A stretch of 62,925 bases of DNA, filler included, from Licmophora abbreviata (lineage: Eukaryota), in assembly GCA_900291995.1 (NCBI GenBank). It is 25 parts of 25 records of this genome, joined end to end, with 100 filler letters (N's around TTAATTAATTAA, not from the genome) between each part and the next. Parts side by side here need not be neighbours in the genome. Positions count along the whole stretch, not along the records: positions 26,549 to 30,910 come from OLMU01002874.1; positions 31,011 to 32,909 come from OLMU01002875.1; positions 33,010 to 34,123 come from OLMU01002876.1; positions 34,224 to 36,060 come from OLMU01002877.1; positions 36,161 to 37,949 come from OLMU01002878.1; positions 38,050 to 39,092 come from OLMU01002879.1; positions 39,193 to 43,047 come from OLMU01002880.1; positions 43,148 to 45,939 come from OLMU01002881.1; 17 more parts are not named here. One strand, given 5' to 3'. The notes under the pieces were generated by a model. The model saw nothing but the letters and a program-made list of their open reading frames with translations. It made no database searches and was not told the origin of the DNA. The translations under genes were made by a program, and so were the position numbers. Positions 28,970 to 46,879 of this stretch are shown here, in pieces (position 1 is the stretch's first letter; each line of letters begins with the position of its first letter).

Positions 28970-29185
28970 CGCCAAACTCCGTGCGCTTCCGGGACCTCCA
29001 GCACCACGCAGGGCGAAAAACGCGTGATCAGCGCGCAGATTCTGGCAATCTTCACGCCGAACGGCATGCCACTTGGCGATTTTCCGCTCATACCCCTCGG
29101 CCGCTGCGCCGCTTCCGCCTCCCGCGTCGAACGCAAATTGATCTGGAACAATGCAATCGCCGGTTCCCTATGTTGCAATTAAAAG

Positions 29186-30259
29186 ATGGAGCGGGAGTCG
29201 CCACCAATCAACAAGACGGTTCTGTCGTCGCACACCATCGACACCTTCCGGCTGTCGGGGGACCAGTCGCGCGATATCCGGGAATACGTGGTCGCAGGGA
29301 CGTTCAGACTAGAGGATCCGCCCACTGGCCCCTCCAATCATGCGGTGAACACGCAGGTCTGGTTTCTGGAAGACATGGTCGTCGCGACCTCCAAAGCCGA
29401 AAGAAGCGTGCTCTACCGGACACCGGAACTGATCGAACGGAACCCGACCTCCGTGTTGAAGGTCCGAATGTATAGGTCTGGGTGCAGCCTGCTTGTGGAT
29501 CACGACCGTCAACAGGCCATCGGGCCGGAGGCCATCCACTTCATCGATCATGACCGCCCGCTCCGCCAGATCTCCACAGATCACGACCAGATGACCCTTG
29601 CCGTGCCCTACAGCGCCATCGATTACGATCCGTCGCGGCACCCGGCCTGTGTAAGCATCGCTCTGGAAACGGCGCAGGGCCGCTTGCTGCAGGCCGGATT
29701 GCAGTCCGTCTTCGCCGAGATCGGGGCCCTGTCGTCCTCGCAGGCGCCCGCCCTCGCCATGGCGATCAGAGGCCTTCTCCGTGGCGTGCTGGAAGGCTGC
29801 ACCGACAGCATCGACGACGGCAGCATCCAGCAGGCGAGGATCGCCGCCATGAAGCGTAGCATCGACCAGAAACTCGGTGACCCGGACCTAGGAATCGAGA
29901 CGCTGCTGAAGGATTTCGGCGCGTCGCGGTCGACGATCTATCGTGATTTCGCGGAGGATGGCGGACTCCAACGCTACATCCAAGACCGGCGCCTGCAGCG
30001 CGCGTTCCTGCTCCTGTCCGAGGCGGCTCCGGGCCGTGGTGTCGTTCAGGATGTGGCCACGCGATGCGGCTTTCTCTGCAACGCACATTTCAGCCGCAGC
30101 TTCCGTGCGCGGTACGGCGTTGCACCGAGCGACTCCATAGCGCGCTGGCGTCAGGCCGCGGAGGCGAGATGTGGTAGTGAAGAGCGTGCGTTGGCCGGTG
30201 ATCTGGCGGAGCGGACGGATATGGAAGCGATCAGGTGGTCATACGACCGCTTCAAGTGA
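29186..30259 (+). CDS. AraC-family transcriptional activator (paralog A)
   Basis: C-terminal FGASRSTIYRDF...GF...AHFSRSFRARYGVAPS double HTH. Confidence 0.92.
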   Translation: MERESPPINKTVLSSHTIDTFRLSGDQSRDIREYVVAGTFRLEDPPTGPSNHAVNTQVWFLEDMVVATSKAERSVLYRTPELIERNPTSVLKVRMYRSGCSLLVDHDRQQAIGPEAIHFIDHDRPLRQISTDHDQMTLAVPYSAIDYDPSRHPACVSIALETAQGRLLQAGLQSVFAEIGALSSSQAPALAMAIRGLLRGVLEGCTDSIDDGSIQQARIAAMKRSIDQKLGDPDLGIETLLKDFGASRSTIYRDFAEDGGLQRYIQDRRLQRAFLLLSEAAPGRGVVQDVATRCGFLCNAHFSRSFRARYGVAPSDSIARWRQAAEARCGSEERALAGDLAERTDMEAIRWSYDRFK

Positions 30260-30302
30260 GACCGGAAGCGCCGCGTCCGGCGAGCGGCGAGACTCCCGGC
30301 AA

Positions 30303-30626
30303 ATGGTATGGGAGTTTCTCATTGAACACGGTAGCTCGCAAGAATTGGCAGCCCGTGTTGCAGATCGCGCCATACACTCTGTTCTTGACGAACTGGAGTC
30401 CCCCGCTGAAACCGAACATCTCGACTATATTGTCGCGTTCTTCTTTGAGCGTTTAGCGAATGAACGGACTGCGGCATTTGCGGAGCATTTCGTGAACGGC
30501 TTGAAGGTGCTGAAAGCCGGCATGCAGCCCTGCGAGGCACCTGATCATGCTACTGGCGAGAGTCCCAGACAACAAAGATCGCGACTTGCATGCAACGACA
30601 TGCGCCGTTGGCTGCAATACACTTGA
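30303..30626 (+). CDS. Possible small hypothetical protein
   Basis: ORF with helical composition, but its 3' end overlaps promoter element P1. Confidence 0.3.
   Translation: MVWEFLIEHGSSQELAARVADRAIHSVLDELESPAETEHLDYIVAFFFERLANERTAAFAEHFVNGLKVLKAGMQPCEAPDHATGESPRQQRSRLACNDMRRWLQYT
30558..30623 (+). promoter_or_regulatory. Conserved operator/promoter P1
   Basis: GAGAG-TCCCAGA-CAA-N8-GCGAC-N7-CAACGACA-N17-TACACT upstream of the 30719 lipoprotein. Confidence 0.8.
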
Positions 30627-30718
30627 GCAGCGTCTCACGTTGAAGCGAAGTGTTCAGCTGACCATCGGTCGTGACGCGCAACAAGCGTGACGCGCATGCT
30701 ATGGGAAAGAAGCATCCA

Positions 30719-31140
30719 ATGTCATACACTTTCAAACTTGCGCTCGGCCTGGCGGCCGCGGCGGCCCTCGCCGGCTGCGTCGAAGACACGGGAAGCGCAT
30801 CGATCGCGCCCGTCGACCCGCCGTTCAGGACCACGTTCGATCCTTCGGTGAGCAGCACAGCCATCAACGCATGCCGCTCCGCGCTCGAAGCGGACACCGG
30901 CACCGCCGGCNNNNNNNNNNNNNNNNNNNNNNNNNNNNNNNNNNNNNNNNNNNNTTAATTAATTAANNNNNNNNNNNNNNNNNNNNNNNNNNNNNNNNNN
31001 NNNNNNNNNNCGAATTCTCGCAGGCCAATAGCGGGGTCTTCATGCGCGTCGGAGCCAACGGTGCGCCTTGGCGTTGCCTCGTGTCGAACGACGGACGCGG
31101 TCCGGAACTGATGTTCATGGGTAGCGAAGGCGCAGCCTGA
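30719..31140 (+). CDS. Small two-Cys lipoprotein A (split by gap)
   Basis: Lipobox LAGC; AINACRSAL...EFSQANSGVFMRVGANGAPWRCLVSNDG; paralog of 45084..45434. Confidence 0.85.
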
Positions 31141-31510
31141 GCCACCGGGACTGAAGTCACACGACCGGGTTTCGCTTGGTAAGATCCATCTTCTGACGGC
31201 TCGACCGGTCGGGTCACCTCGGGTGGTCTTTCGAAACGAGTCGCCCATATCCGAAAGACCTGGCCGTCGATCGACGGTTGCCATGCGCGTGAAACGAAGG
31301 AGGCGCCATTGGTGCCGTAGGGGATTTGCACCCCGATCACGGGCCACAGTCAGCGCTGTGATACGCGCGCCAGCCGTAGAGGGAAAGGGATGCAGCCTAA
31401 AGCGTTTCGCGAAAAGCCTGACCCACAGATTATCGCGACATGCAGTGCTTTGTTCAATCGTTGCACGCGTTCCGCCTTTAGCTGATGACTCAGGTTAAAG
31501 GCGGAATGCT

Positions 31511-32587
31511 TTAGTTGAAACGCTTGTATGCCCATTGCAGCGCCGCCACCGGACCGGGAAGAAGATTGGACTCACTCACCATGTCGCCGCTCGCGATTTG
31601 CATCTGGTCGAGCCGTTCGTTCCATTGTCCCAAGACGTCGCTCGGACGTTCGCCGAAGTGATCGCGGAAACTGCGGCTGAAATGAGCCAGCGTGACGAAC
31701 CCGCTGCGGTCGGCCACATCCTGAACCGCGCCGCGCAAGGGTGTCGCCTCGGACAGGATCCGGTAGGCGCGGTGGAGACGCCGCGAAAGGATGAAGTGCT
31801 GTAGGCCGCCATCTTCGCCGAAATCACGGTAGATCGTCGCGCGCGAAGCACCGAAGGCTTTCAGAAGCATTTCGATGCCAAGCTCGGGGTCCGCCAGGTT
31901 CCTGTCGATGAAAACCTTCATCGCCGCGATCCTTGCTTTACGGGTCGGTCCGTCCTGCTCGCTGTCCGTGTTGCCTGCGACAATGCCCTGCAGCAGACCG
32001 CCCAGAGCTGCGGCAAGACCGCCAGCCTCCGCCTGGTCAATGGTTCTGGCTTCTTCCAACGCAAGCCCCATACCCGCTTGCAGAAGCCGTCCCCGCGGTG
32101 TGTCCATGCCAATGCTGAACGTCGCCGGATGGAGCGAGGGGTCGTAGCCAATCAGGTGATAAGGCACCGTCAGAGTGAACTGTTCGTGATTGCTCGAAAT
32201 CTGTCGCCCGGCGCGGTCATGGTCGATAAAGTGGATGGCCCCGGTACCCAAAGTGCGCCGCTCGTCGCCATTGTCGAACAGGCTGTAGCCCGAGCGGTAT
32301 ATGCGCACCTTGACCACCGGCGTCGGGTTCCGGTCGATCAGGGCCTGCGTGCGGTGAACGGTGTTTGCCTCGGCCTTCAGCGCCGCAAGCAGGAGGTCGT
32401 CCAGAAACCACACCTGCGTCTTCACGCGGTGACCGCGATTTGCCGTGAATGGCCCCTCGAGATCGAAGGTTCCGTCCACGACATAACGCCAGAGTTCACG
32501 CGATCGTTCCGGCGCCATGTCGAAGGTATCCAGCGAATGGGTCGCCAAGGCAACGCCTGGTGCATGTGAAATCAAATTCATACGCAT
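31511..32587 (-). CDS. AraC-family transcriptional activator (paralog B)
   Basis: FGASRATIYRDF...AHFSRSFRDHFGERPS; colinear with paralog A over its full length. Confidence 0.92.
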   Translation of the reverse strand: MRMNLISHAPGVALATHSLDTFDMAPERSRELWRYVVDGTFDLEGPFTANRGHRVKTQVWFLDDLLLAALKAEANTVHRTQALIDRNPTPVVKVRIYRSGYSLFDNGDERRTLGTGAIHFIDHDRAGRQISSNHEQFTLTVPYHLIGYDPSLHPATFSIGMDTPRGRLLQAGMGLALEEARTIDQAEAGGLAAALGGLLQGIVAGNTDSEQDGPTRKARIAAMKVFIDRNLADPELGIEMLLKAFGASRATIYRDFGEDGGLQHFILSRRLHRAYRILSEATPLRGAVQDVADRSGFVTLAHFSRSFRDHFGERPSDVLGQWNERLDQMQIASGDMVSESNLLPGPVAALQWAYKRFN

Positions 32588-32723
32588 GACCCTCAGGAAC
32601 TGAAGTGGATGCAAAACCTCACCTCCCTAGTATCGAAAGATCAGACAGTCGCCAAGGAATAACCTGTAGCAACTAACGCGATGGCGCGGCGGCAGTATTC
32701 CAAATGGGGACTTCGGTTAAACC

Positions 32724-34460
32724 TCAGTCTCCCTCTGGCATCGTGAAATCGGGCCGCATGAACGGCAAGGGTTGGCCTTCGTCCACGCAGGTCAGGTCCG
32801 GCGGCGCGTCGGGGTCAAAGACGAAGTCCCGCATGATCGCGATCGCACACCGGTTGATGTTCATGACTTGGACGTGGAACCCGGCGGGAAAGATCACGTG
32901 GGTGGCATTNNNNNNNNNNNNNNNNNNNNNNNNNNNNNNNNNNNNNNNNNNNNTTAATTAATTAANNNNNNNNNNNNNNNNNNNNNNNNNNNNNNNNNNN
33001 NNNNNNNNNGCGTCCACCACTTCCCGGCTCGTATACCACGGCGTCTGAACGTCCAGCCCGCCGCTGAGGACAAGGGTCGGGACATCCGCGGTCGCCAACT
33101 CATCGGCGCGATCGGGCAGTTGCGGCAGGTCCAGTACGTCGCACAACTCGACATAGAGGACGGCGCTGTTTCTTGCGAACAGGCGTCCGTAAAGGTCGAC
33201 ATCCTCCGTGACCACGTCGTCCGCCGACGTGGGCGGATCGTCAGTACAGACCATAGCGGCATGCATCAGGATCGCCATGGCGGCGTCCATCGCCGCGGGA
33301 TCGCCCAGAAGTTCCGCCCCGCGCTGCGCCGCCATGTCGCTCGCGATACGCTCCCGCCCCTCCGTGACGTAGGCGGTCAGGAGCGCGGGAAAAGCCATCA
33401 CAGCGAATTTCTCGGTCTGCAAACCGTGCAGATAGGACGCGAACTCACCCTGCGTCAGGGTCAGATCGAAGCTGACATCCGTTTGATCCGGCACTGCATA
33501 GGTCGTCTTGATCGGCCCGTCGTCGAACAAGGCGAGGGCCGCATCCAGCAGCGCCGGGATGTCATAGCTTGCCGCGCATTCGGCATCCTCGGCGCAGAGC
33601 CGGGTCAGGTTGTCGATACCCCACTGCGCGAAACTGGAGCGCCGTGCGCTCCAATCCGTCGAGGCAAGGGAGGCCGCGCCATCGAGCACCACGGCCTCGA
33701 GGATGCCTGGAAACTCTCGCATGACGTTCTGGCCCAGTTGCGAGCCGTAGGACTCGCCGTAGAAGACGATCCGCTCGTAGCCAAGCGCCCGCCGCATGTC
33801 GTTCACATCGGCGGCGTTCTCGAGGTTGTTGTATGCGGCAAGATCGACACCTGCTGCGCCATGCCTTGTGACGCAGTCCCGGATCCGCGCGCGCAGTAGA
33901 AGGCGCCCTTCCACGTCGTCCAGACCGCGCTCCACGGCCTCACGCTGCGCCGTCCAGAGTTCGGGACAGTCGAGGTAGGGCCGGGATCTGAGCGTACCGC
34001 GCTGCTCCATCAGGACGACATCGCGGCTTTCGAGGATCGGCCCAAGGAGTTCGGGCTGGAACAGCGCCAGGATCGCCGGATCGCCGGTGATCGCCTGACC
34101 TGGCCCGCCTGCCAGCATAAAGANNNNNNNNNNNNNNNNNNNNNNNNNNNNNNNNNNNNNNNNNNNNTTAATTAATTAANNNNNNNNNNNNNNNNNNNNN
34201 NNNNNNNNNNNNNNNNNNNNNNNGGCTAGGCGCACCTCGCCCTCGCCGCCCACCCGGCTCTGCGGGACAACGACATATCCGCAATCTGCGCCGCTCGATT
34301 GGGTGACCTCGGCGGGGAGGTCGAGAAAGCAAGTGTCGAGCGGCTCGACGGCCGGCGTAGTCTGCGCCCAGGCAGACGAAGCCGCAAGCGCCGGCATGAT
34401 TGCCGTCGCGCCAGCAGACAGGAAGTACTTCCATCTGTCGATCGTCTCTATCACTCGCAT
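32724..34460 (-). CDS. Secreted alpha/beta hydrolase (tripeptidyl-peptidase/TAP-like), split by two gaps
   Basis: Signal peptide, CGYVVVP, LAGGPG, EQRGT, GESYG nucleophile, SGGLDVQTP and C-terminal GFHVQ His. Confidence 0.85.
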
Positions 34461-34508
34461 TCTTTCGCCTCCTTGCAGTCGTGTCATCCCCGTCCGCCGC
34501 ACGCTTGC

Positions 34509-35234
34509 TTAGAACAGCATGGCGATCCCGACGCGGATTTCGTGGGTGTCGAGATCGCCGGCAAGTCTGTTGGTGCGACTTAAATTGAGGTAATCGAACT
34601 GGCCGAAATCCGAGTAGCGGTAATCGATCCTGCCGATCCAATGCTCGTCGAAGGCGTGCTCCACGCCGACGCCCACTGTCCACCCACGCTCGGTTCCGGA
34701 CCAAGCACGTGGCCGACTTCGAACGCCACGCACATCAGCTTGGTAAACACCTTCATGTTTGACCCAGGCCAGACCGGCGGCGGCGTAGATCAACGTATTG
34801 TCCAGCGCGTATCCGATGCGCCCACGCAGGGCTGCCGTGCCGAGGATGCGCGTGTCGACCACTTCGGTTAAGGTGCCTGTGAAGTTGCCTCCGGCGTTGG
34901 TAAGCGCCCTTCTCTGGACGGCACGGCCATCCGCACCGCTCCAGTTTACCTCGCCCTCGACGCCGTATACGAGCGCCGAGCCATAATGCCAATTGTAGCC
35001 GAGGTAGAGGCCACGCTGGACCCCCTCGGGGTCCGTGGACCAAGACCGGCCCACAACACCGGTGTTGGCGACATTGTTGACGATCTGGTCGGCACCTATT
35101 GCACCGACTTGGAGGCCCATATAGCCGCCGGACCAATCGCCAGAAAACTCTCCTCCCGTAGCCGACTCCTGCGCTACGGAGGCTGCGGGAATAAGACAGG
35201 CCAACATAAGGCCAGATATTCGTTTCAATGTCAT
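34509..35234 (-). CDS. Omp25/RopB-like outer-membrane beta-barrel protein
   Basis: DWSGGYMGLQVG, LRGRIGYA, GWTVGVGVEHA and RIDYRYSDFG motifs; terminal Phe. Confidence 0.88.
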   Translation of the reverse strand: MTLKRISGLMLACLIPAASVAQESATGGEFSGDWSGGYMGLQVGAIGADQIVNNVANTGVVGRSWSTDPEGVQRGLYLGYNWHYGSALVYGVEGEVNWSGADGRAVQRRALTNAGGNFTGTLTEVVDTRILGTAALRGRIGYALDNTLIYAAAGLAWVKHEGVYQADVRGVRSRPRAWSGTERGWTVGVGVEHAFDEHWIGRIDYRYSDFGQFDYLNLSRTNRLAGDLDTHEIRVGIAMLF

Positions 35235-35476
35235 ATCGTTTCCATTCGTTGAAGGTTGCGTTGCGAACCGGCCCCCCTGCGGGTCAGGTTCGCCCTGGAC
35301 GGCATCGTGGTCAGATCTTCGCCGGTCATCACGACGACGCCGGAGTCCGACTGGACGTTCTGGTGCGCGGCGACGTCGGAAGCTGCCGGGACCAGCCCGG
35401 CACATAGCCGATGGCGCATCTCTCGGACGAAGTCGGAGGAAAGGCTTAACAAGATCTGCAGGCGTTCGGGTGTCAT
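35231..35476 (-). CDS. Small hypothetical protein
   Basis: 81-aa ORF with ATGA overlap to the OMP start. Confidence 0.4.
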   Translation of the reverse strand: MTPERLQILLSLSSDFVREMRHRLCAGLVPAASDVAAHQNVQSDSGVVVMTGEDLTTMPSRANLTRRGAGSQRNLQRMETI

Positions 35477-35507
35477 CTCATCTGGTCCGTCGATGGGGCA
35501 CCGCGGC

Positions 35508-35813
35508 TCAGTTTGCCGTGGCCTGCATGAGTTCCTTCATGACCTCGTCGCATCGGGCCGTCGTGCCCGTGAGCGTTGCCGGGTCAACAGTGCCGCCGAG
35601 ATCCTTAGTCGCGCGGGCGACAACCTGCTCGATCTGGTCCTCGGTCAGGAGGCCCTCCGCGGTCGCGGCCATGACGGTCGAGCAGATGCCGGCGCTTAGC
35701 CCCGTGGCAATACCAGCGCCGGTTCCAGCGCCGGCAAGGATTGACCCACCGATCACGGCGCCGCCAAGAAAGCCCACAACGAGGCCGATAAGTCCGATAA
35801 GGAGTTTACCCAT
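35508..35813 (-). CDS. Gly-rich membrane/secreted hypothetical protein with Cys pair
   Basis: GxxxG-rich N-terminal helices; two Cys. Confidence 0.7.
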   Translation of the reverse strand: MGKLLIGLIGLVVGFLGGAVIGGSILAGAGTGAGIATGLSAGICSTVMAATAEGLLTEDQIEQVVARATKDLGGTVDPATLTGTTARCDEVMKELMQATAN

Positions 35814-35826
35814 TTGTCTGATACCT

Positions 35827-36060
35827 TCAGTTGCGAGACGCCAGTCGCAGCCACCTGCAGAATCCGGCGAGAATGGCGATGTTCAGCATGGGAGTGAGCC
35901 CTGCCGCCCAGGGGCGAAGAGACTCCGACACCCCATCCAGCCAGTTGTTCCAGGGCAGGCCAAGCGGTGCGAGGAAGACGCCGGCAAGCGGCGTAGGCTC
36001 CTGCCCGAACCAGCCAAACATGCCGGTGAAAAAAAGGAAAAGCGCAGCGACGTAGAGCAG
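35827..36060 (-). CDS. Small membrane protein, paralog of 19464..19748 (5' end in gap)
   Basis: FGQEPTPLAGVFLAPLGLPW...LRPWA...PMLNIA...C. Confidence 0.75.
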   Translation of the reverse strand: MLYVAALFLFFTGMFGWFGQEPTPLAGVFLAPLGLPWNNWLDGVSESLRPWAAGLTPMLNIAILAGFCRWLRLASRN

Positions 36061-36303
36061 NNNNNNNNNNNNNNNNNNNNNNNNNNNNNNNNNNNNNNNN
36101 NNNNTTAATTAATTAANNNNNNNNNNNNNNNNNNNNNNNNNNNNNNNNNNNNNNNNNNNNGCTCAGGGGGAGAAGGAAAGTCGTTTTCATTGGGATGTCC
36201 CTTTCGATTGATGGCTCCGCAGCCTATGAGCGGGCAGAAAGGCAGGTGGCACCACCGGTCGTCGGCCAGCCGCCAAAGAGAATTCAATACAACCGACTGG
36301 CGG

Positions 36304-36849
36304 TCATAGCCTCCGGTACTCGGTGTTGAAGATCTGACCGGCCGAATTGACTGTGCAAACCACATGCTTGTGGCCATGCGCCAGTTCGATGTAGTAGGTA
36401 TCTGCCCCTTCCTGAGCAGCCTTGGTGACGTGCACGTTTCTTGCGCTCGTCTGGAAGACGCCGTTCACGGCATCATTGAAGCAGGAATTCATCGCAGCTG
36501 CGGGGACCTTTACCCCCACGACATTATTGGACTTGTGCGAAAGGTTGTGGGCGCGCTCCCTGTGTCCGGCATCATAGCCGTTCATGTAGGCCGCCGTCGG
36601 GTAGTTGCTTGCGTAGGGCTCGTTGTGCACGCCGTCGCGATAACCCATCTCGAACTGGGCCGTTTCATCCGCGCCGTTTGGCTGATAGCCGTCCCGGTAG
36701 TGGTCCTTGTGATGCGCCAGAGCGGCTATCCCCAGAATCGCCAGGGCCGCCGCAGCGGCTTTATCGCTGTTATCACTAGCCAGCGCAGGCGCGCTTCCGA
36801 CTTGCAGAGCGAGTGCCGCTGCCGTGGCTGCCATCAATAACTTTTTCAT
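36304..36849 (-). CDS. Secreted hypothetical protein (GYRDG/GYDAG repeats + C-terminal two-Cys domain)
   Basis: RBS GGAGAG; signal MKKLLMAATAAA...ALA; AMNSC...VVCTVNSAG. Confidence 0.8.
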   Translation of the reverse strand: MKKLLMAATAAALALQVGSAPALASDNSDKAAAAALAILGIAALAHHKDHYRDGYQPNGADETAQFEMGYRDGVHNEPYASNYPTAAYMNGYDAGHRERAHNLSHKSNNVVGVKVPAAAMNSCFNDAVNGVFQTSARNVHVTKAAQEGADTYYIELAHGHKHVVCTVNSAGQIFNTEYRRL

Positions 36850-36886
36850 CGGTCTACTCTCCAAGATTGGATGATCATTGAACAAA

Positions 36887-36952
36887 TTGTTACCGCAGCT
36901 GGGCCACGCTGTCGTTACACCGAAGTCGCAGTGTTCCTTGTCTAAATGTCTC
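36887..36952 (-). promoter_or_regulatory. Conserved operator/promoter P4
   Basis: GAGAC-ATTTAGA-CAA-N8-GCGAC-N7-TAACGACA-N17-TAACAA. Confidence 0.75.
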
Positions 36953-37024
36953 ACGGAAAGGAAAACTGACCGAACTGGCGTCTGTCGATCCGTGTGCGGA
37001 CCCGCCGCCAGGCATTCTGCGCGA

Positions 37025-37411
37025 TCAGCCGAACACCGCGAAGCCTTCGTCGATCCTCGCAAGGATGGCATAGGTCACAAGCGTCAAGATAAAGCACAAA
37101 AATAGCCCTGGGATCAGCATGAGCTTGATCAGCCGGGACAGCCTCGCACCCAGTTGAGGCCCGTCCACTTGATCGGGGTCCAAAGCAAGTCTCACCAGTC
37201 CCGAAACCTGAACCAAGATCCCCGCGATCACCAGTCCGAGAGCCATGAACGTTGCGCTGACAACCAAGTGAATACCCAAAGACACGCCGGTCTCGGGCCG
37301 CGTGTCCGCAAGGAAGAGACTGGCCATGACAAGAACCCCGGCCATGCCAGACAGCGCCCCTGCCACAGCGAAGGAGGTCGAAAAGGCTATCGAAAGGACC
37401 TTCATGGGCAT
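37025..37411 (-). CDS. Hypothetical 3-TM membrane protein
   Basis: Hydrophobic ORF ending ARIDEGFAVFG. Confidence 0.6.
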   Translation of the reverse strand: MPMKVLSIAFSTSFAVAGALSGMAGVLVMASLFLADTRPETGVSLGIHLVVSATFMALGLVIAGILVQVSGLVRLALDPDQVDGPQLGARLSRLIKLMLIPGLFLCFILTLVTYAILARIDEGFAVFG

Positions 37412-37769
37412 GCGAGCGCACCGTCTTTTGTGGAGTTTTCGCGGCCCTCCGGCGTCATGACGCAAACACGCGCATCCAACGCTAACGATCCGATCGGAGA
37501 CGTTCCACGAGCCGCCCACACTCTCAGAGATCACCTGCGGCACTTGCGGCGCCGAAGACCGTCTCGCCGGAAGGGAATTGCATCCTCTTTGCTGAACTCA
37601 TGAGGACCTGACCAATCGATTTCGGGGTCGAAAGCAACGTTTGCCCCGCCGCCTCGATGAAAGGAAAATCCCGCTGACGACGGAAACCGATGATCGGTGT
37701 GATCAGCGATCTTCTTATCTCAATTTACTTTAAAGTCGATCCGAGATGCAACAGGCCCAGCCGATCTCT

Positions 37770-38746
37770 TCAACCGCCGTGGATGATTGCATCGGGAAGG
37801 AAGTACCGCTCATCTCCGATCAATACGACGAACGCGTCACTTTCCCGCGTCACGGTCATGTCCATTACGCCGTCGGCCTCTGACCGGTCAAAGGAAACAG
37901 GCTCGCCGTTCTCGAAGTAGATCGTGCGCGTGGCTGCCTCGGGCCAGAANNNNNNNNNNNNNNNNNNNNNNNNNNNNNNNNNNNNNNNNNNNNTTAATTA
38001 ATTAANNNNNNNNNNNNNNNNNNNNNNNNNNNNNNNNNNNNNNNNNNNNCCTTCGACCCCTCGACCAGATAGTCACCAGCGGCCCAACCCGTCAGGGACG
38101 GCTCTGGTGTTGAGACCCGGCACCACCGCTGGCCCTCCGCCATCCGGCAGCCGAGATTGCGGACTTCGAGCCCGTTAGGCAGCGTGGCGAGCACGCGCGC
38201 GCCTCTCGAGGGCGCATCTCTGAGGTTCAGCCCACCGCCGGCGCGGACGCGCCAGTAATCCGGGCCACCCTGGAGTCCGTCCGCAAAATCGCCCTCAACG
38301 ACAGCGCCAGTCTCGCCCATGATGGAAATCTCCAGAGCGTAGTTCGACGACTCGCCCCGGCGCGCGGCGTTGCGGTAGAGATAAACCGAAACCGAGTAGG
38401 TCCCGGAGTTCGGTAGGACGCCATCGAAGACGTTGAGAGCGGGTATCATCGGGCCGGTGATCTCACTGACCGCGAGCGCTTCGTCGCCTGGTCCGCGCCC
38501 TGGGGCGTAGACGTTGAAATAGGTGGCGGTATTGTCTGTGGTTAGCCGGATCTGCATGCGCTGACCTGCCTCGGCCCCGATCGTGTAGAGAACGTATTCC
38601 CGGCCGGTGATCCTGTCGGAAATGGTCGCGCCGCTCGTTCCGGGCGCAAAGCGTACCTGCTCGGTGCGCATGTCCTGCGCGAGGACCGGACCAGCGCAGA
38701 GACCAAGACAGATCGCGGCGGCCAAAAAGGACAGTGTTCGTTTCAT
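37770..38746 (-). CDS. Secreted protein: PliG-like domain + SH3b domain + C-terminal ERYxxPDAxxxGG domain (split by gap)
   Basis: VRFAPGTSGATI...YFNVYAPG...LPNSGTYSVSVYLYRNAARRGE (PliG-like); LNLRDAPS...CRM...WCRV...GW (SH3b). Confidence 0.75.
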
Positions 38747-38949
38747 CGCTTGCTTCCCGGTTGTTGATTGTGACGCGCCCGCCGGTCTTCGCCGGCGAGT
38801 GCTACAGTGGCGCAAACCCTTTTGGCCTGGCAGGTCGACACGACTTGGCCCGCCGAGTGGTTCATGCAGTTCAAAACAGCCGCCCTTGCAACGATCCTGA
38901 GATAAGGCCGCGAGATTTGACCTTGTCAGGGTATCCAACTTCCAACTGG

Positions 38950-39015
38950 AACCTATCATCAGGCGCGACCACTGTCGTTGCCCGGAGATCGCATTGTTTG
39001 TTGCCCGAGACTCTC
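38950..39015 (-). promoter_or_regulatory. Conserved operator/promoter P3
   Basis: GAGAG-TCTCGGG-CAA-N8-GCGAT-N7-CAACGACA-N17-TAGGTT. Confidence 0.78.
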
Positions 39016-39395
39016 AATCCAATTCGCGGGCGATCATTGCCTCGGATTTAAAGAAGAAAATTATTGATTATTATCAATATCTTGAAACGTTTNNNNNNNN
39101 NNNNNNNNNNNNNNNNNNNNNNNNNNNNNNNNNNNNTTAATTAATTAANNNNNNNNNNNNNNNNNNNNNNNNNNNNNNNNNNNNNNNNNNNNGATTATTA
39201 TCAATATCTTGAAACGTTTCCCTCAAAGCGGACCTTCGCTGAACCACATCACCGGATCACGCAGTTGCGGACCACTGCGCGACTGTACGCTGTAGATCAA
39301 CGGCTTCATTTATTCTAACATTCTACACAATTATTCTGAATCGGACCGCCCGCCAAAGGTGCGCGCGGCATGCCAAGATCCACAAGGTTACGCGA

Positions 39396-40175
39396 ATGAG
39401 ACCAATGCTTCCGATACGCGGCATGCTGGGGGCTGCGCTGACCGTGCTCATGATTGTGGGCGCGGCGCCTGTTCTTGCGCAGGTAGCCGACGGCCCGCTT
39501 ACCATACCAGCCGAGGTCGAGGTACGCGGGCGTGGCTGGACGCAATTATCCGACTTCAACGAGATGAGCGATTTCGGGCTGACGCTGCTTGAGACCATTC
39601 TGCTGACCACCGCCCTCGCCTTCCACCCGGTCAATCTTGCCTACCGCGATCACAGCAAAGGCGTTGATTTACAGAAAGGCATGATCCTTTTTGCGCTCAT
39701 CGGTATGGTGACGGGCTTTCTCATTGTTTATCATGGTTATCTTATCGGCTTCGTGATCTTCGGGATCGGAAGCCTGTTCCGCTTCCGAATGGAGTCGAGT
39801 TCGATCGCGGATACTGCGCAGCTCGTTTTCGCATCGCTCATCGGGCTTTCAGCTGGCCTTGATCTGCCCGTCATGGCGTTGGTCGCCACGGCCGCCGTCT
39901 GGGTGGTCGTCTACATATTCGGACGTACGACGCAACTCTCGCTAGAAGTGAAGTTCGACGAAAAGAGCGCTCTGGCGGATGCGATGCTCCACTTGCAGGA
40001 GCTTCTGAGCGATAGCGGCTTCTCGGTCGCTGCCGTCGCGAAGACGAAATTCAAGCCGGTGGCGCTCTACACCATGACCAGTCAGCACCCGGACGCGAAG
40101 GCGTCGCTCGTTCGGACCATGTCGGAACTCCACGGCAAGAAGGATAGCGGAGTTTCGGACTGGCACGTGGACTGA
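39396..40175 (+). CDS. DUF4956-like membrane protein
   Basis: Multi-TM segment with FVIFGIGSLFRFR...DT...F...IGLSAG and a soluble ACT-like C-terminus. Confidence 0.6.
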   Translation: MRPMLPIRGMLGAALTVLMIVGAAPVLAQVADGPLTIPAEVEVRGRGWTQLSDFNEMSDFGLTLLETILLTTALAFHPVNLAYRDHSKGVDLQKGMILFALIGMVTGFLIVYHGYLIGFVIFGIGSLFRFRMESSSIADTAQLVFASLIGLSAGLDLPVMALVATAAVWVVVYIFGRTTQLSLEVKFDEKSALADAMLHLQELLSDSGFSVAAVAKTKFKPVALYTMTSQHPDAKASLVRTMSELHGKKDSGVSDWHVD

Positions 40176-40182
40176 TCCCCCA

Positions 40183-41061
40183 ATGATGCGCATGTGCTCA
40201 GCTCTCACGGTCGCAGGGGTGATCTGCGCCGCTGCGGTCTCCCAAACCGAGGCTGATGAAACCGACTTGCCCGAGCGGCTGGTATTCCGCGAAAGCCATG
40301 TGATCTTTGCGCATGCGGACGGGCTGAAGGAGCCGTCCGGCCTCGCGCTCGATCCCGAAACAGGGGCGTTGATGACAGTCAGCGACAACTCTCGCCATGT
40401 GTTTCTCCTTGATCCCAAGGGCGGGATCACGCGGCGCCTTCATGCGGTTAGCGGACTGAAAGATGCCGAGGCGGTCGACATCGCGTCCGATGGCCGGGTT
40501 CTGCTGCTGTCCGAGGAACGGGGAGCGATCCTTTCGATGGACCCCGCCGCACCCAATAAGGCGACCCTGCACCCGCTGTCGAAGATGAAAGGCTTCGAAG
40601 CGTTTCTCTCCGTCGCGGACGGTGACCCGGATCGGCTGAGCCCCGAGGGCCTTGCCGTACACGGGCTGACCGGATCCGTGATCGTGGCGAACGAAAGCGA
40701 TCCCCGGGTGTTGATCGAAGTTTCTCCCGCCCTCGATCGAATCTTCGGGGTCACCCTTCTGTCTCAAGAGCGCGGCTTCGCCTGCTCATACACGACCGAC
40801 GACGCGCTCGACGCCAGTGGCCTTGCCTATGACCCTGTGCGGGACGGCCTGTGGATCACCAGCGATACCGGGAAGTGCGTGTTTTTCTGGGATGGTTCGG
40901 AAAACCCGGCGCGGCATTTCGAACTGGCTTGGCTCGATGGTCAACATGTTAGACCGGTGGACAATGCCGAGGGCGTGGCCCTCGATCTAGACAGCGATAC
41001 GCTCCTTGTCGTAACCGATGACGGGAAGGCATCGAGGCTCTTCCGCTACGCCATTGAGTGA
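40183..41061 (+). CDS. Secreted YjiK/SdiA-regulated-type beta-propeller
   Basis: Repeats EPSGLALD, DAEAV, PEGLAV, DASGLAYD and NAEGVALD; signal peptide. Confidence 0.75.
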   Translation: MMRMCSALTVAGVICAAAVSQTEADETDLPERLVFRESHVIFAHADGLKEPSGLALDPETGALMTVSDNSRHVFLLDPKGGITRRLHAVSGLKDAEAVDIASDGRVLLLSEERGAILSMDPAAPNKATLHPLSKMKGFEAFLSVADGDPDRLSPEGLAVHGLTGSVIVANESDPRVLIEVSPALDRIFGVTLLSQERGFACSYTTDDALDASGLAYDPVRDGLWITSDTGKCVFFWDGSENPARHFELAWLDGQHVRPVDNAEGVALDLDSDTLLVVTDDGKASRLFRYAIE

Positions 41062-41082
41062 CTTTTCGGATGACCGGCTCGG

Positions 41083-42048
41083 CTACCGCGTCTTGCCCGT
41101 GGAGACGCCGGGAACCCGTGCGCGGTCGAGGCGCTCGAGAACGACCCCGCCGGAGACGATTTTGGCTGGCAGCGTTTCGGGATCCAGCCGTGTCCCAAAG
41201 TCGGGACCGATCATCGCCGACACGGTGATCGTGCCGTTTTCGCCGATGTCGAGGATCGTGAAGCCCGGCTCGGCCCTCTTCGACGTGCCAATCAGGTGGC
41301 GCGGGCCCGCCCCGAGACACGCCTGTACCACGTAGGCGACGCCCTCCGACGCGCCCGGATAGTAGGCATGGTGGTGACCGGAGAGATGCAGGTCTATCCC
41401 GATCTCCTCGAACAGATCCGCAAGCCCCGGATCGCCGATGATTTCCTTCTCGCGCCCCGCCGCCACGGGCCAAAGCGGAAGATGGCTGAAGACGACGCGG
41501 GTCGGCCCCGCGCCTGCCATCGCCGCCTTCAGCCAGGTCTCCTGCTCGGGCGCGAGCGCTCCGACTGTCGTCGCGTCGAGCGAAACGAAACGGACGCCGC
41601 CCAGATCGAAGGCGTAGGCGAAAGGGTATCCGTCCCGCCCGACATAGGCGAGCTGGGGCCGGTGCGCGGCCCAGCTTTCCGCGTAGAGCCGCCGCTCCTG
41701 CTCGAACCCGGCATAGGCGGAGGCGTCGTGATTGCCCGGCGTCACGGCGAGCGGAATGTCCGCCGCCTCAAGCGGCGCGGTGACCGTCCGGTGGAAGGCG
41801 TCCCACATGGCGCGCACCTCCGCTTCGGTCAGTTGTGGGCGGCGCTGGCCCGCGACCATGTCGCCCGTCGAGATCACGAGGTCGGGTTTCATGGCCACGA
41901 TCGCGCGGATGGCCTCGGCGACACGCGGCTCGTAGGCGACGGATCCGTAGGACCCGTTCAGATCCGAGATTACCACGACGCGCAACGGCGCTGCCAAGGC
42001 CGCGCCGCCGAAGAGAAATGCGAGGACAAAAAAGAGTCTAGCTACCAT
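41083..42048 (-). CDS. Secreted calcineurin-like metallophosphoesterase
   Basis: Signal peptide; SDLN, TGDMVAG, PGNHD, FSHLP and SGHHH motifs. Confidence 0.9.
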   Translation of the reverse strand: MVARLFFVLAFLFGGAALAAPLRVVVISDLNGSYGSVAYEPRVAEAIRAIVAMKPDLVISTGDMVAGQRRPQLTEAEVRAMWDAFHRTVTAPLEAADIPLAVTPGNHDASAYAGFEQERRLYAESWAAHRPQLAYVGRDGYPFAYAFDLGGVRFVSLDATTVGALAPEQETWLKAAMAGAGPTRVVFSHLPLWPVAAGREKEIIGDPGLADLFEEIGIDLHLSGHHHAYYPGASEGVAYVVQACLGAGPRHLIGTSKRAEPGFTILDIGENGTITVSAMIGPDFGTRLDPETLPAKIVSGGVVLERLDRARVPGVSTGKTR

Positions 42049-43406
42049 GGCAGGGCACGTCGTCCGGTATCACAGATCCTGTCTCCAAGAATTGCTTCGG
42101 GTTGAGGTCGAAGGCAAGATCGCCGTTGCGGCAACTTTCCGACAGAATGCCCGCGGCGAGGTTCGTGTTCTTGACGATCTGCTGGATCTGGCCGTCGTTC
42201 AGGCCGAGGCTCGTGGCCGTCCACAGATAGACCGGCCCTTGCGACTGGAGATCGGCGTCCAGCGCCATGAGCTTGGCGTATACGTCTCCGTCGAAGTGGC
42301 GGAGCTTTTCCAGCATCTGGGTCGACTTGGCGAAGTTCGCGTATTGTACACGCCCGCCCGCGTCATTGTCGTTTAGGTTCGTTCGACGCAGAAGAATGGC
42401 CCCCTCTGGCACGTCGCCATCGCCAGGCTCATGATGCCTGGCCTTCCTGCGCTTCAGTTCGCCCGCCTCGACCCAGTGGTAGTAGGGCGTGAAGTCGATG
42501 TTGCCGACCCTGTCCTGCTGGCTGAAGATGTAGTCGAGAAGGACGATCTCGGAGAGTTCGCGCATCCAGTAGGCCATCTGCTGCGCCGGGACATCCCTGC
42601 CGAGGTCCCTCGCGATGGTGCGGTCCTTCCGGCCTTCGGTCAGCCCGTGTTCGATGGCCTCGGCCAGCGGCAGCGACGAGCGCAGAGCGAGAAAAGCGGG
42701 TGTTTCCTGAAAGTCGAAGTTCTGGCCCTTGCCCCAGCCGGACTTGCGAGTGCCGTTGATCTCGGAGCCGTAGCGGTGGCCCGGGCTCGACAGGAGCACG
42801 CCGTAAAGTTGAGACCGGTCGGCGGTGTAGATATCGTCGGTGGGAGAGTAGCTTTCGGGCTTCACGTCCGCGTTGACAATGTGGCGCCAGCCCTCGTGGT
42901 TCATCCGGGCGCTTTGGTTGTGGCCGGAGATGGCGAGGCCGGGTTCGGCGACCTCGGTAAGGTGCATCTTCGTGTCCATCGAACGCCAGACCGCAGCCGG
43001 GACGATCACGTCCATGCCAAAAAACCGCGAAAAGTGGTAATAGAGCANNNNNNNNNNNNNNNNNNNNNNNNNNNNNNNNNNNNNNNNNNNNTTAATTAAT
43101 TAANNNNNNNNNNNNNNNNNNNNNNNNNNNNNNNNNNNNNNNNNNNNCATGCCGGGGCTGGTGCTCCAGGTCTTGGGACAGAGGGCAACGGCGGGCGCGT
43201 AGAAGTCGATCGCGCACGTAGCCCTCTTCCGCTTCGATATCGTCCTCGCCATAGTGGCCACCCGGGATCTGGGCGATCCGCAAGCAGCGTTCGACGACCC
43301 CGTTCGGACTCGTGAACGTTGTCTCCTTGCCCCGGATTGCGTCAGAGCCGAAAGCGGCGACGGGTAAGAGGAACGCACAGGTGAGAGATAGTGAGATTGA
43401 CTTCAT
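42038..43406 (-). CDS. Secreted atypical kinase, four-jointed/Fam20-like (split by gap, +1 frameshift near 43218)
   Basis: Signal MKSISLSLTCAFLLPVAAFG; YHFSRFFG..IVPAAVWR; EIVLLDYIFSQQDRVGN; NLNDNDAG. Confidence 0.6.
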
Positions 43407-43426
43407 GCCTGAACCTTTCCGCACTA

Positions 43427-44077
43427 TCATTTCGGACAGATCGCGGCGCGCTCGGCGTCGGTGATCGAGAGCGAGGCATCGACCGAGAACTTGCTGAATT
43501 TCTCGTCGATCCAGCCGTCACACCCGCCCGAGCACGGCGCGCCGTTCCGGGCCTCGTTCCAATAGGCCTTTGCGCGGTCTTCGGACCAACCGCAGAACTG
43601 AACGAGCGCCATCGCCGAGAGCGCGCCCGAGGAATGGACGCCCCACATGCAATGGACGAGGACCGGGCCTTCGTCGGGATCTTTGATAACATCATGGATT
43701 GCCTTCATGACCGCTGCGGGACGCGATGAGCGAGTGGATGCATAGTCAAGATCGCCGGCGCCGCATGTGGTCGTGCCGTAGTCGGCGTTCTTGCCGAAGT
43801 CGGCGTAGAAGGCCCTCGAGAAGCCGTCGCTGCAGAGCGCGTGGCGCTGGGCGGTGCTGAGGCCGGTCCGGTTTTTGTCCCCGCCGGAGAATCCCGCGCG
43901 GTAGAGCACGCCGCTCAGGACGGGCCGAAAGAAGGTCAGGCCTTCGGGTGCACCCGAAGGGTTCCGAGCAAGCATGGCGCTTTCCGAGGGGCCGCCGCCG
44001 CGTTCTGTGAAGTCCTCGGCGTGGGCGATTGAAAGCATCGCGAGACAGGCGACGAGGCCTGATGCTAGATATTTCAT
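43427..44077 (-). CDS. Secreted PTP/dual-specificity phosphatase-like protein with non-canonical P-loop
   Basis: Signal peptide; FRPVLSGVLYRAG; GPVLVHCMWGVHSSG...QFCGWS. Confidence 0.7.
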   Translation of the reverse strand: MKYLASGLVACLAMLSIAHAEDFTERGGGPSESAMLARNPSGAPEGLTFFRPVLSGVLYRAGFSGGDKNRTGLSTAQRHALCSDGFSRAFYADFGKNADYGTTTCGAGDLDYASTRSSRPAAVMKAIHDVIKDPDEGPVLVHCMWGVHSSGALSAMALVQFCGWSEDRAKAYWNEARNGAPCSGGCDGWIDEKFSKFSVDASLSITDAERAAICPK

Positions 44078-44224
44078 GGCGACTACCTTGTCTATCTGGT
44101 CAGCGTTGAGCCCTGATCCGTTGAGTACCCTTTGTGCATGAACCTCCGCGCAAGAAATGCGGCGCGGCTTTGTCGCCACATTTCTGGAGGCAAGTGCCGG
44201 CCGGCACGGAGGCCGCAGCACAAA

Positions 44225-44896
44225 TCATTCGATTCCGAAGTAGATGTCGTAGCGCACGTTCTTTCCCGTGCGATTGATCACTTCGACAATGTGATCGCCG
44301 GATTGCCAGAGCTGCCCACGATAAGGCTTGTCGAGAGGAAGCTCGTCAAGAAGCGCGCTGCCGTCCGGGTTCACGATCCGGTAGGTGAGCGGCGCATTGG
44401 CGGGCGAGACGCTCACGTTCAGGAACTGTCCATTCCGCGCACCAAGCTGGTAGCGCACCGTTGCTCCGGGGCGCAGTTGCGCAGAAAACTCCGTCGAACG
44501 CGCCCCCGAGGGGAACCGAACCCTCGCGGTCGTGACGGTTTGCGACTGGGACGAGCCGGCGCTTCCGGCCTGATGCGGACTGCCTTCGCCGCGCACGAAG
44601 GCGGGCCAGGATTTTTGATCGGCAAAGAACTCGACCAGCCTATCGCCCTTGGCATCGTAGGAGCAGCTGAAGTAGGTGCTCCGGGTCTCGAGATATATGG
44701 TGCCGTTCACGGCGTGCGTCCCGTTTGTTCGCTGCCCATCGTAGGTCGCTTCAGTACGTGCGTCGAAGTCCTGATAGAATTGCTGCGAGGCGAGACGGCA
44801 GTCTTCGACCATGTAGCTGGGAGATTGGGCGAGGGCTGGGACTGCTGAACAGGCAAATGCTCCCAAGATGAATAGCGGCGAAATGGTCGTTTTCAT
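44225..44896 (-). CDS. Secreted protein: N-terminal two-Cys domain + C-terminal PliG/PPC-like domain
   Basis: Signal ...ALA-Q; EDCR...FSCSYDAKG; RVRFPSGA...YQLGARNGQ...GQLWQSGDH. Confidence 0.72.
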   Translation of the reverse strand: MKTTISPLFILGAFACSAVPALAQSPSYMVEDCRLASQQFYQDFDARTEATYDGQRTNGTHAVNGTIYLETRSTYFSCSYDAKGDRLVEFFADQKSWPAFVRGEGSPHQAGSAGSSQSQTVTTARVRFPSGARSTEFSAQLRPGATVRYQLGARNGQFLNVSVSPANAPLTYRIVNPDGSALLDELPLDKPYRGQLWQSGDHIVEVINRTGKNVRYDIYFGIE

Positions 44897-45083
44897 GGTA
44901 AGATCCTCTTGGTCAATCGCGCAGCTTTGCGCGGGTGGTACATCGGTTTCATGTGCAGCCCGGTCTCCTCGGGCGAGGGTGTCATTTGCAACAGGCACCC
45001 GAACCTCGGGCCAGCATCCCGTGCGGGCCAGTTGAGCCGCAGCATATGGGGCCTTCACCGATAACGCCGGTCGGGCCGGTTTC

Positions 45084-45434
45084 TCAGGCGGCGCCTTCGC
45101 TGCCCATGAACATCAGTTCGGGACCACGCCCGTCATTGGACACCAGACAACGCCATGGGGCGCCATTCTCGCCAACGCGCATGAAAACTCCCGAATTGGC
45201 CTGTGAAAACTCGGTACCAACGAGCCGGACCTTGCCATCGGTCTGGGCGTCAAGCGCGGCGACGCAGGACCGCATGGCGGCATCGCTGACCGACGCATCG
45301 AATGTGGAGATGAACGGAGGGCCACTCGGCGAGGGCTCCATCGGCAACTGGTTCGCAGCGCGCGGACCTTCGACGCAACCGGCGAGCGTCACCGCGCCCC
45401 CAAGACAGAAGGCCAGCCTGTAGATATGTTTCAT
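45084..45434 (-). CDS. Small two-Cys lipoprotein B
   Basis: RBS AAGGA; lipobox LAGC; last 42 aa are 41/42 identical to lipoprotein A. Confidence 0.88.
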   Translation of the reverse strand: MKHIYRLAFCLGGAVTLAGCVEGPRAANQLPMEPSPSGPPFISTFDASVSDAAMRSCVAALDAQTDGKVRLVGTEFSQANSGVFMRVGENGAPWRCLVSNDGRGPELMFMGSEGAA

Positions 45435-45530
45435 GTGGGTTTTTCCTTTCCACAGCACGAAATCAGAACCTTTCGCGCGTCCCCATCGACCATCTGAAGG
45501 AGAGTCCGGTTGAGCGACCACAGCGTAAGC

Positions 45531-45596
45531 AGCCTACGTCTCCGGACGGCCCATGTCGTTGGATGCATGTCGCGAACTTCGTTGTCTGGGAGTCTC
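45531..45596 (-). promoter_or_regulatory. Conserved operator/promoter P2
   Basis: GAGAC-TCCCAGA-CAA-N8-GCGAC-N7-CAACGACA-N17-TAGGCT. Confidence 0.8.
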
Positions 45597-45654
45597 AGTC
45601 GGAGAGAGCGCCAGCCCCTTTTCAACGCAACCTGAAGCGCCCGCGATCAAAGGG

Positions 45655-45797
45655 GGGCAATGTCAGAGGAAACCGGGTTGCGGCGCAATCGGCGCCGCCC
45701 TAGCCTGCCCGATGAAATAACACGATCCATTCAAGTATTTCAAAACCAGCCGGGAAATTATCCGGCTGGCCTTTATGCTGTATGTCCGGTTTCCGCC
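45655..45797 (+). mobile_element. IS6-family left end and decayed transposase start
   Basis: GGGCAATGTCAGA terminal motif, then MK*HDPFKYFKTSREIIRLAFMLYVRFP with an internal stop. Confidence 0.78.
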
Positions 45798-45798
45798 T

Positions 45799-46879
45799 TT
45801 ACTTCTTCTTTTTGATGATCTCCGCCTGCCGTTCCAGAGAAACATGGCAATAGGCGCTCGCAGTGGTGACGACGCTGGAGTGGCCGATATTTAGCGAAAA
45901 CGCTTTGAACTCTTCGATTGAGGGATAATGGGCGCTGGCNNNNNNNNNNNNNNNNNNNNNNNNNNNNNNNNNNNNNNNNNNNNTTAATTAATTAANNNNN
46001 NNNNNNNNNNNNNNNNNNNNNNNNNNNNNNNNNNNNNNNGAAGGTCGGCAGACCAGCCGTCTCGAACGCTTGCCGGACCGCTTTGCGGAGCGCGTTGGCG
46101 TTGCGGTAGATAGCGCGCTTGAAGCCTAGAACTTTGAACTCACCGTCCTTGTGACCGATTTCGAGCGGCGGGAAGAGCGGGTCATCGGGGCCGAAGAGCT
46201 TAGCCTTTTGTAGGTATCGGACCCATTCGGTGAAGAACTCTTCATAGACCGGATCGACCGAGAGGAAGAAGGTCGTGATCGTCTTCGACCCTTTGGTGCG
46301 GACCTCGCGGGCGTCTTGGAACACATAGCCGTCAATCGTGTTTACATGCTTGAGTCGAAGCGAAGAAATAGCCCCGTCTCGCGCGCCAGTCAGCATCAGG
46401 AATGCGATAAGAGCTTTGTCGCGGCGCTCGACTTCGGTGTTTTCCGGCATGGCGTCGAAAGTGTGGCGAACCATGTCGAGCGACGGATACGGCGTTTCTC
46501 TTGCCGTTCGGGCGACACGCTGGCCTTTGGCATCCATGTTGAAGTAGTCGGCATCGGAATGCCCGATCCGGCTCTTGTAGCCAGGTTTATCCGCCAGCCA
46601 AAAGATGAAGTCCTTGTTTGCCGCCAGGATGCTGGCGATTGTGGACTTCGCCAGCGGCTTGCCTGTCGTCTGACTGGTTTCCGTATCCAGCCGATCCCTG
46701 AAGCGGACCACCTGCTCGATTTTGAACTTCTTAAACGACGCATAGTTGCAGCTTGCCTCGAAGCGCTGGATCGCTTCAGCAGCCTTCACGATGGTCGCCT
46801 TGTCCTTGCGTTTGGCCGTCCGCAGATAGTGGAAATACTGGCGCTTGATCCGTTCGTTTTCTTCGTTAATTTTACGCAT
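45799..46879 (-). CDS. Second tyrosine recombinase (split by gap)
   Basis: RDKALIAFLMLTGARDG, VRTK; after the gap NIGHSSVVTTASAY (catalytic H and Y). Confidence 0.88.

Follow-up and report, generated by a model that had tools for sequence, protein, structure and literature searches.

Which switch governs the exported-protein genes that lie around two AraC-family regulator genes in a 62,925-nt stretch of assembly GCA_900291995.1, filed under Licmophora abbreviata and referred to here, at its full length, as the window? A sequence-only reading had described four copies (P1 to P4) of a 66-bp operator/promoter element in the window, and had proposed that the two regulators, AraC1 and AraC2, act on it together. 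On the strength of sequence comparisons, and with a probability of roughly 0.8, we consider the element to be a sigma70-type class II AraC operator-promoter of a CuxR/FeaR-like subfamily and a cousin of the CuxR promoter. Gene switches of this type are known; what is new is the site for an AraC subfamily that has not been studied.

The window was re-read for all four copies, and their sequences, strands and coordinates are as previously described (bit scores are from the non-circular matrix introduced below):

30558..30623, + strand: P1, tandem half-sites, -35 ACGACA, N17, -10 TACACT; predicted start at about 30630; 36.0 bits

45531..45596, - strand: P2, architecture as in P1, -10 TAGGCT; predicted start at about 45524; near-duplicate of P1; 47.4 bits

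38950..39015, - strand: P3, architecture as in P1, -10 TAGGTT; predicted start at about 38943; 38.0 bits

36887..36952, - strand: P4, architecture as in P1, -10 TAACAA; predicted start at about 36880; 48.3 bits

The spacing is indeed invariant, as the copies align without insertions or deletions and share 24 of 66 columns, and the gene that each copy faces, 37-203 nt downstream, encodes a signal peptide or lipobox (identified by eye). P1 and P2 are identical at 38 of 43 core bases and precede paralogous lipoprotein genes with 80% DNA identity at the 3' end, so that the number of independent contexts in the window is three rather than four. P3 and P4 precede unrelated genes, and the flanks of the four copies are unrelated to each other.

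A consensus pattern with up to three mismatches retrieves exactly P1-P4 from the window, with 0.02 matches expected by chance, a test that is circular because the pattern derives from the four copies themselves. Leave-one-out matrices assign 34.9-55.3 bits to the omitted copy and at most 11.1 bits to any other position in the window. Furthermore, a non-circular matrix of 23 sites, all from other genomes and including neither window nor CuxR sites, places P1-P4 at the top ranks with 36.0-48.3 bits, followed by a score of 10.0 bits; in 20 shuffled windows the maximum averaged 11.5 +/- 3.4 bits and reached 20.1 at the highest. A 107-aa open reading frame overlapping P1 (30303-30626) was considered as a gene and rejected, having no homologue and a third-codon-position GC content (GC3) of 0.53, compared with 0.71-0.77 in real genes.

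The element consists of a tandem YGMGAY-N7-YAW half-site, with box A (YGMGAY) at position 0 and box B (YAW) at +12. By their spacing, the two boxes lie about one turn apart and the direct half-sites about two helical turns apart, and the distal and proximal half-sites are slightly unlike (GAGA versus GCGA). The proximal half-site runs into the putative -35 (WCGAC), with a TA fixed 17 bp further on. In a profile of 21 non-redundant sites, chosen without use of the downstream TA, conservation is highest at boxes A and B and the CGAC behind them, drops to background over 17 bases and returns at the TA (T in 15 and A in 18 of the 21 sites, by computational count). The last T of the -10 is weakly conserved (10/21) and absent from the TAACAA of P4. 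This alignment upholds the proposed overlap with the -35 and the fixed 17-bp spacer to the TA. The tandem half-site arrangement likewise stands, but the 23-bp period claimed for it is confined to the window's own clade and is replaced by 22, 21 or 20 bp elsewhere.

The two regulators encoded next to these elements are as follows:

29186..30259, + strand: AraC1, CuxR/FeaR-like regulator of 357 aa with cupin, helical hairpin and bipartite helix-turn-helix (HTH)

31511..32587, - strand: AraC2, paralogue of AraC1, 53% identical, no element past its stop

Both contain HTH_18 and their recognition helices are nearly identical, which, together with the 53% identity, makes the two proteins look redundant or tuned to different signals. 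The NCBIfam model FeaR matches both best, with 75-89 bits against a cut-off of 199, and they are therefore not FeaR. An alignment of 31 rows of close AraC relatives was used to retrieve 17 genome and 11 metagenome loci, and clades within the subfamily were assigned with a quick tree method.

Judged from these sequences, it is a single AraC subfamily, spread over Alphaproteobacteria, with which the element co-occurs, and not the cargo. With leave-locus-out training, a minimum score of 20 bits, a distance limit of 700 nt and exact duplicate loci dropped beforehand, a site was found near 8 of 9 of the closest, 8 of 15 of the intermediate and 2 of 18 of the distant subfamily regulators. The sole miss among the closest is AraC2 of the window, whose orthologue in locus L001 (78% identical) does have the element past its stop. 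The usual position in related loci is 19-43 nt past the AraC stop and co-oriented, sometimes upstream or divergent, and one further candidate occupies the corresponding position in the window:

30289..30350, + strand: putative decayed fifth copy, 30 nt past the AraC1 stop, placed like the element in relatives; 5.7 bits

Its score lies below the shuffled-window maximum and is not significant alone; we regard the site as probably a decayed fifth copy. At four further loci (L052:3640, L053:3653, L074:2170 and L012:9399), sites with a short period of 20-22 bp lie upstream of the regulator's own transcription unit, which suggests autoregulation in distant clades.

In ten genomes with such regulators, a relaxed pattern yielded eight matches in six genomes, all within about 8 kb of a regulator, and no control matches; as the pattern was derived from regulator loci and misses some variants, only its silence elsewhere is informative. 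The strict four-copy pattern was too strict for genome scans, with no match in 401 family genomes, and the relaxed pattern was used instead. Across the 401 family genomes, scanned blind, 14 relaxed matches in 13 genomes compare with 4 for the reversed control. Nine of the 14 fail a stricter seed and have no AraC nearby. The remaining five are full-form, and a subfamily AraC directly adjoins four of them; these four lie in the three genomes with the best AraC hits among the 12 that encode such a protein. The description of the element as island-internal is accurate for this window, but more widely it is a subfamily-wide regulator-operator cassette in Alphaproteobacteria.

The cargo served as a control for this association. 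Homologues of the P3 target, a PliG-like protein fused to SH3b (PliG-SH3), occur in 55 of the 401 genomes, and the element was absent within 1.5 kb of this cargo at all 30 loci examined (best score 7.9 bits). When 19 of these 30 cargo loci were widened to 8-16 kb, only G049 was found to have the element (45 bits), and the same region is the only one of the 19 with an intact subfamily AraC. Another AraC type lies beside or near the cargo in 6 of the 19 widened regions (L105:5990-6330, L106:6340-6760, L107, L108, L113 and L120 show the same cargo beside a different AraC type), and a different tandem, TTTGGATA with a period of 21, precedes the cargo in L105 and L106 (by eye). A different AraC and a different tandem beside the same cargo suggest swaps of regulator plus operator.

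CuxR and its target promoter Puxs1 were reportedly described in Sinorhizobium by Schaper in 2017. CuxR (PDB 5NLA) is the closest solved protein to the window AraCs, with a sequence E-value of 8e-30, 26% identity and Foldseek rank 1 for the AraC model, in which a cupin, a helical hairpin and a bipartite HTH are predicted as in CuxR-type effectors; the match in sequence and fold extends over the full length. Five of six cuxR upstream regions taken from public plasmids keep TGSAC-N7-TAA-N5-NGGAT-N7-TAA-YGACA upstream of uxs1 or its position. Their proximal NGGAT-N7-TAA-YGACA is in the same register as the window element, sharing with it the tandem order of 5-bp box, N7 and YAA and a proximal half that passes into YGACA at the -35. 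The TAACGACA of P4 is identical in three CuxR-type promoters, and CuxR-type proximal halves fit the matrix better than column shuffles (fraction 0.0002). The two systems differ in period (20 in CuxR, 23 in the window) and in box A (GSAC/GGAT versus GMGAC). Their regulons differ as well, as CuxR controls the uxs1-aps exopolysaccharide cluster whereas the window targets are lipoproteins and PliG-SH3 proteins, and only the geometry of the proximal half-site is common to both. According to excerpts of PMC12560781, CuxR is an activator whose footprint on Puxs1 covers 63 bp and whose binding requires the direct repeat CG-GAT; both CGnGAT words of the S. meliloti region lie in the aligned block. Co-occurrence, cargo control and this likeness to the CuxR target promoter bear out the proposal that an AraC-family protein is the probable reader of the element.

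Class II promoter geometry is familiar from XylS, FeaR and the HrpX/PIP-box. With AraC/XylS class II promoters the window element shares the fixed distance to the -10, the overlap with the -35 and the tandem direct arrangement, and it differs from them in its recognition sequence. AraC sites that overlap the -35 and touch sigma domain 4 are described for AggR in excerpts of PMC6392122. No paper on the motif or the cluster was found in a search of the full-text literature, outside the scope of which most subscription journals fall; the motif may have been generalised before, in the original CuxR paper or in the supplement of PMC12560781.

The likeness to CuxR does not appear to extend to its ligand. 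The N-terminal RxxxR of CuxR, the position of which we take to be that of the RWPR-flanked arginines in its sequence, is missing from AraC1, AraC2 and 30 of the 31 alignment rows, three of which lack the N-terminus. R162 is presumably the second arginine contacting cyclic di-GMP (c-di-GMP) in the CuxR cupin; the aligned residue in AraC2 is Ile, with an invariant Arg two positions away. Use of RxxxR by CuxR in c-di-GMP recognition is covered in excerpts of PMC9045272. With RxxxR missing, the window AraCs probably resemble CuxR on DNA and are probably not c-di-GMP effectors of the CuxR type, and c-di-GMP is unlikely to be the inducing signal by the CuxR mechanism. On the DNA side, a CAT variant of box B accompanies a second recognition helix with the sequence PYHFSR, and a GAC/GAG variant accompanies a third helix type.

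Several observations weigh against the assignment of the element to this AraC subfamily and to CuxR-like activation. Under the search conditions given above, 24 of 42 subfamily regulators have no site, and L013 and L057 carry the cargo and a divergent subfamily AraC with at most a half-site. Related regulators and loci are not independent of each other, and the link between box B and the second helix rests on single clades. Two sites occur in genomes without a subfamily AraC, namely an orphan full-form site of 31 bits in G305 (L124:7383, - strand) and a GAGTC-N7-CAA tandem variant in G384 (L109:6809, - strand), which lies before a homologue of the P4 gene and next to a LysR gene. CuxR-type sites reach only 2.7-9.1 bits in a full scan and rank first in three of five loci, and the overlap of the aligned block with the CuxR footprint is one that we infer from the position of the CGnGAT words. 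Finally, the putative transcripts cross gaps of 114-274 nt. As a separate observation, the orphan site in G305 adjoins relaxase/MobC-like genes (by eye).

Activation rather than repression by AraC is likewise inferred. Repression by the same proteins at the same site, which would block a usable -35/-10 until ligand release, would fit a site that covers the -35 and a -35 (ACGACA or TCGACN) that agrees with the consensus at 4 of 6 positions, and excerpts of PMC12538310 report WhpR, a structural relative, as a repressor. However, all clades keep the element in exactly one register to the -35, which occlusion would not need, none of P1-P4 passes a simple sigma70 consensus scan, and the closest characterised relative, CuxR, is an activator; we consider repression improbable. 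A requirement for both AraC1 and AraC2, as a heterodimer or as obligate co-activators, would account for the presence of two paralogues in one region and for the slight difference between GAGA and GCGA half-sites. Yet G402 and G404 each encode a single subfamily AraC together with one and two sites, respectively, of the same asymmetric element, and the near identity of the recognition helices of AraC1 and AraC2 also speaks against it. Co-activation by the two proteins, as originally proposed, therefore loses its support, and we judge such a requirement highly improbable.

We assign a similarly low chance to the AraC being a passenger, with the element read by a different trans factor such as a host regulator, an alternative sigma factor or a sigma54 activator on the GAGAC boxes. 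The G305 orphan, the G384 variant beside LysR and the many subfamily AraCs without a site could be explained in this way. In whole genomes, however, the element is found only at regulator loci, it is missing from the nearest genome (G001) and from cargo beside other regulators, and no sigma54-type GG-N10-GC is conserved within 40 nt downstream of the sites in the 21-site profile. That the element is instead a recombination site, mobile repeat or structured RNA marking shuffled cassettes is scarcely credible. Cargo genes are indeed shuffled between loci, and P2 has a gene for a tyrosine recombinase about 400 nt away, but the symmetry of the element is direct and not inverted, with no dyad as in tyrosine-recombinase att/attC sites. 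Moreover, P1-P4 show no structure on folding (z-scores -0.5 to +1.6), an Rfam scan detected no RNA besides tRNA in the window, the downstream TA is fixed and the flanks of the copies are unrelated.

For a class II AraC operator-promoter, the following mechanism can be proposed. A regulator dimer would bind head-to-tail, with one bipartite HTH per half-site, and its proximal subunit would recruit RNA polymerase at the -35. In this manner, AraC1 and/or AraC2 could switch on four transcripts for exported envelope proteins, of which that from P4 might continue into AraC2, creating positive feedback, and that from P2 might extend into a kinase/phosphatase module.

The window contains 24 spacers of N44-12 bp-N44, for example at 39093-39192, where the flanks are duplicated. 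The 12-bp insert is an assembly artefact that breaks many open reading frames. P1-P4 sit on four different pieces, the order of which depends on scaffolding; genes running across spacers and the agreement of the piece order with the gene order of locus L003 support the arrangement. The elements and regulators fall within an accessory region:

27682..49841: accessory region, missing from the nearest genome; right end at tRNA-Thr(TGT) 49842-49917

45992..46927 and 48647..49812: integrase genes at the right end of the accessory region

Two flanks of the window, one ending at 27681 and the other beginning at 49842 with tRNA-Thr(TGT), have matches in the nearest genome, where they lie on different contigs. 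The named close relatives suggest that the host belongs to Rhodobacterales. Genes for integrases, AlpA and a MerR-like protein occupy the right end of the region, and a subfamily AraC lies a few kb from the same tRNA in two other records, of which L010 has the same integrase module and L013 the same cargo. No tRNA duplicate of at least 12 nt was found as attL, and the left border is not proven. A transposase fragment (DDE_Tnp_1_4, below cut-off) lies at 28781-29182, just upstream of AraC1. Directly past the AraC2 stop, where relatives carry the element, the window has a strongly folding repeat of about 120 bp (31394-31514, z -5.9), which has 39 matches in the nearest genome and no Rfam match.

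The genes downstream of the elements are the following:

30719..31140, + strand: P1 target, small lipoprotein with LAGC lipobox; spacer inside; paralogue of the P2 target

45084..45434, - strand: P2 target, 116-aa lipoprotein

44225..44896, - strand: exported protein of 223 aa, C-terminal domain weakly PliG-like (E 0.009); directly under the element in L002 and L003

43427..44077, - strand: PTP-like protein

42038..43406, - strand: secreted kinase with putative Fam20 fold, taken from a family relative; spacer inside

41083..42048, - strand: metallophosphoesterase

37770..38746, - strand: P3 target, exported PliG-like + SH3b protein; spacer inside

36304..36849, - strand: P4 target, exported protein of 181 aa that belongs to no known family; homologue directly under the element in G049

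32724..36190, - strand: co-oriented genes from P4 to AraC2, encoding two small membrane proteins, a beta-barrel of the outer membrane (34509-35234) and a TAP-like hydrolase, exported (32724-34460)

A regulator ends the co-oriented run that starts at the element in the window as well as in L002 and L003, which implies positive feedback if the run is one transcript. A terminator scan did no better than chance, with 15 found and 15.5 expected, and does not settle the length of the operons. Among sequencing runs, none with RNA was listed for 36200-39050; contigs of two runs match the window at 26549-30910, which has no bearing on expression, and one of the two may be its source. The genes for the PTP-like protein, the kinase and the metallophosphoesterase (41083..44077) possibly form the distal part of the P2 transcript. 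Their inclusion in the regulon, as suggested earlier, receives some support: the kinase module is co-oriented downstream of the element in G049 and adjoins the same cargo in 4 of the 19 widened regions, but it is missing within 10 kb in L001-L003.

Targets in the close clade are exported envelope proteins, including PliG-SH3 fusions, lipoproteins and LysM-BON proteins, and the L003 operon contains an L,D-transpeptidase. Subfamily-wide, targets comprise RTX and beta-helix proteins and also a glutamine synthetase, and a secreted target is the rule, not a law. In L055 / L127:8032 and 9199, the element is present on both sides of the AraC gene, with the glutamine synthetase in one direction and sensor/ammonium-transporter-like genes (by eye) in the other; the targets there would appear to concern nitrogen rather than the envelope. 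The P2 target is YsaB-like by language-model features only (0.90, rank 3), which we treat as a lead. In the P3 target, the N-terminal domain can be aligned with PliG over the full domain (PDB 4DZG, E 8e-15; 4DY3, E 3e-7) and retains an R-x-x-A-R stretch; a search of the full-text literature found no paper on the key residues of PliG. It differs from PliG in its fusion to SH3b and further domains, and its inhibitor role is a prediction. E. coli pliG itself appears as a Zur target in literature excerpts. Between the TAP-like hydrolase and its L001-L003 homologues identity is 80-90%, compared with 53-78% for the adjacent AraC, a contrast that may reflect recent exchange or strong constraint; the hydrolase is a candidate source of the inducer.

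If the element is the operator-promoter of this subfamily, a binding site and targets can be assigned to an unstudied group of alphaproteobacterial AraC proteins, and the CuxR promoter design extends to relatives without the c-di-GMP motif. P1-P4 would also provide four ready reporters for the inducing signal, and the unannotated envelope proteins that recur as a cluster (PliG-SH3, lipoproteins and, in relatives, L,D-transpeptidase) would be linked. A broader interpretation, which we offer tentatively and regard as doubtful in its entirety, is that the element controls a programme of envelope defence that is mobile and self-amplifying. Here a CuxR-like AraC, encoded last in the operon that it targets, would produce positive feedback and co-induce lysozyme-inhibitor and peptidoglycan-binding proteins, a secreted Fam20-fold kinase and secreted phosphatases, and the cargo would be re-wired elsewhere by exchange of the regulator and operator cassette. 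The operators of the subfamily, with periods of 20-23 and box B variants, would then form a natural series, anchored on CuxR, for AraC recognition rules.

The regulon would further direct attention to the large family of secreted kinases, which comprises at least 723 proteins and has no Pfam entry. Sequence searches of PDB, Pfam and NCBIfam with the kinase returned no match. For the model of a family member, a relative of the window kinase and not the window protein itself (pLDDT 91.6), the best fold is Fam20, with a Z-score of 17.6 and a root-mean-square deviation of 4.2 over 287 residues (Foldseek E 2e-4). The family shares the atypical kinase fold and a signal peptide (by eye) with Fam20 (PDB 5XOO, 5YH0), but identity is only 13-15%, and PI4K-II follows close behind (Z 14.3). 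QQDRxGN and LNDND are invariant in 114 kinase homologues. Recurrent companions of the kinase, in the window and in L108, L109, L110:482-1912 and L111, are a metallophosphoesterase, a PTP-like protein that is secreted, an SdiA-regulated protein and DUF4956; the cluster represents a candidate extracytoplasmic phosphorylation module.

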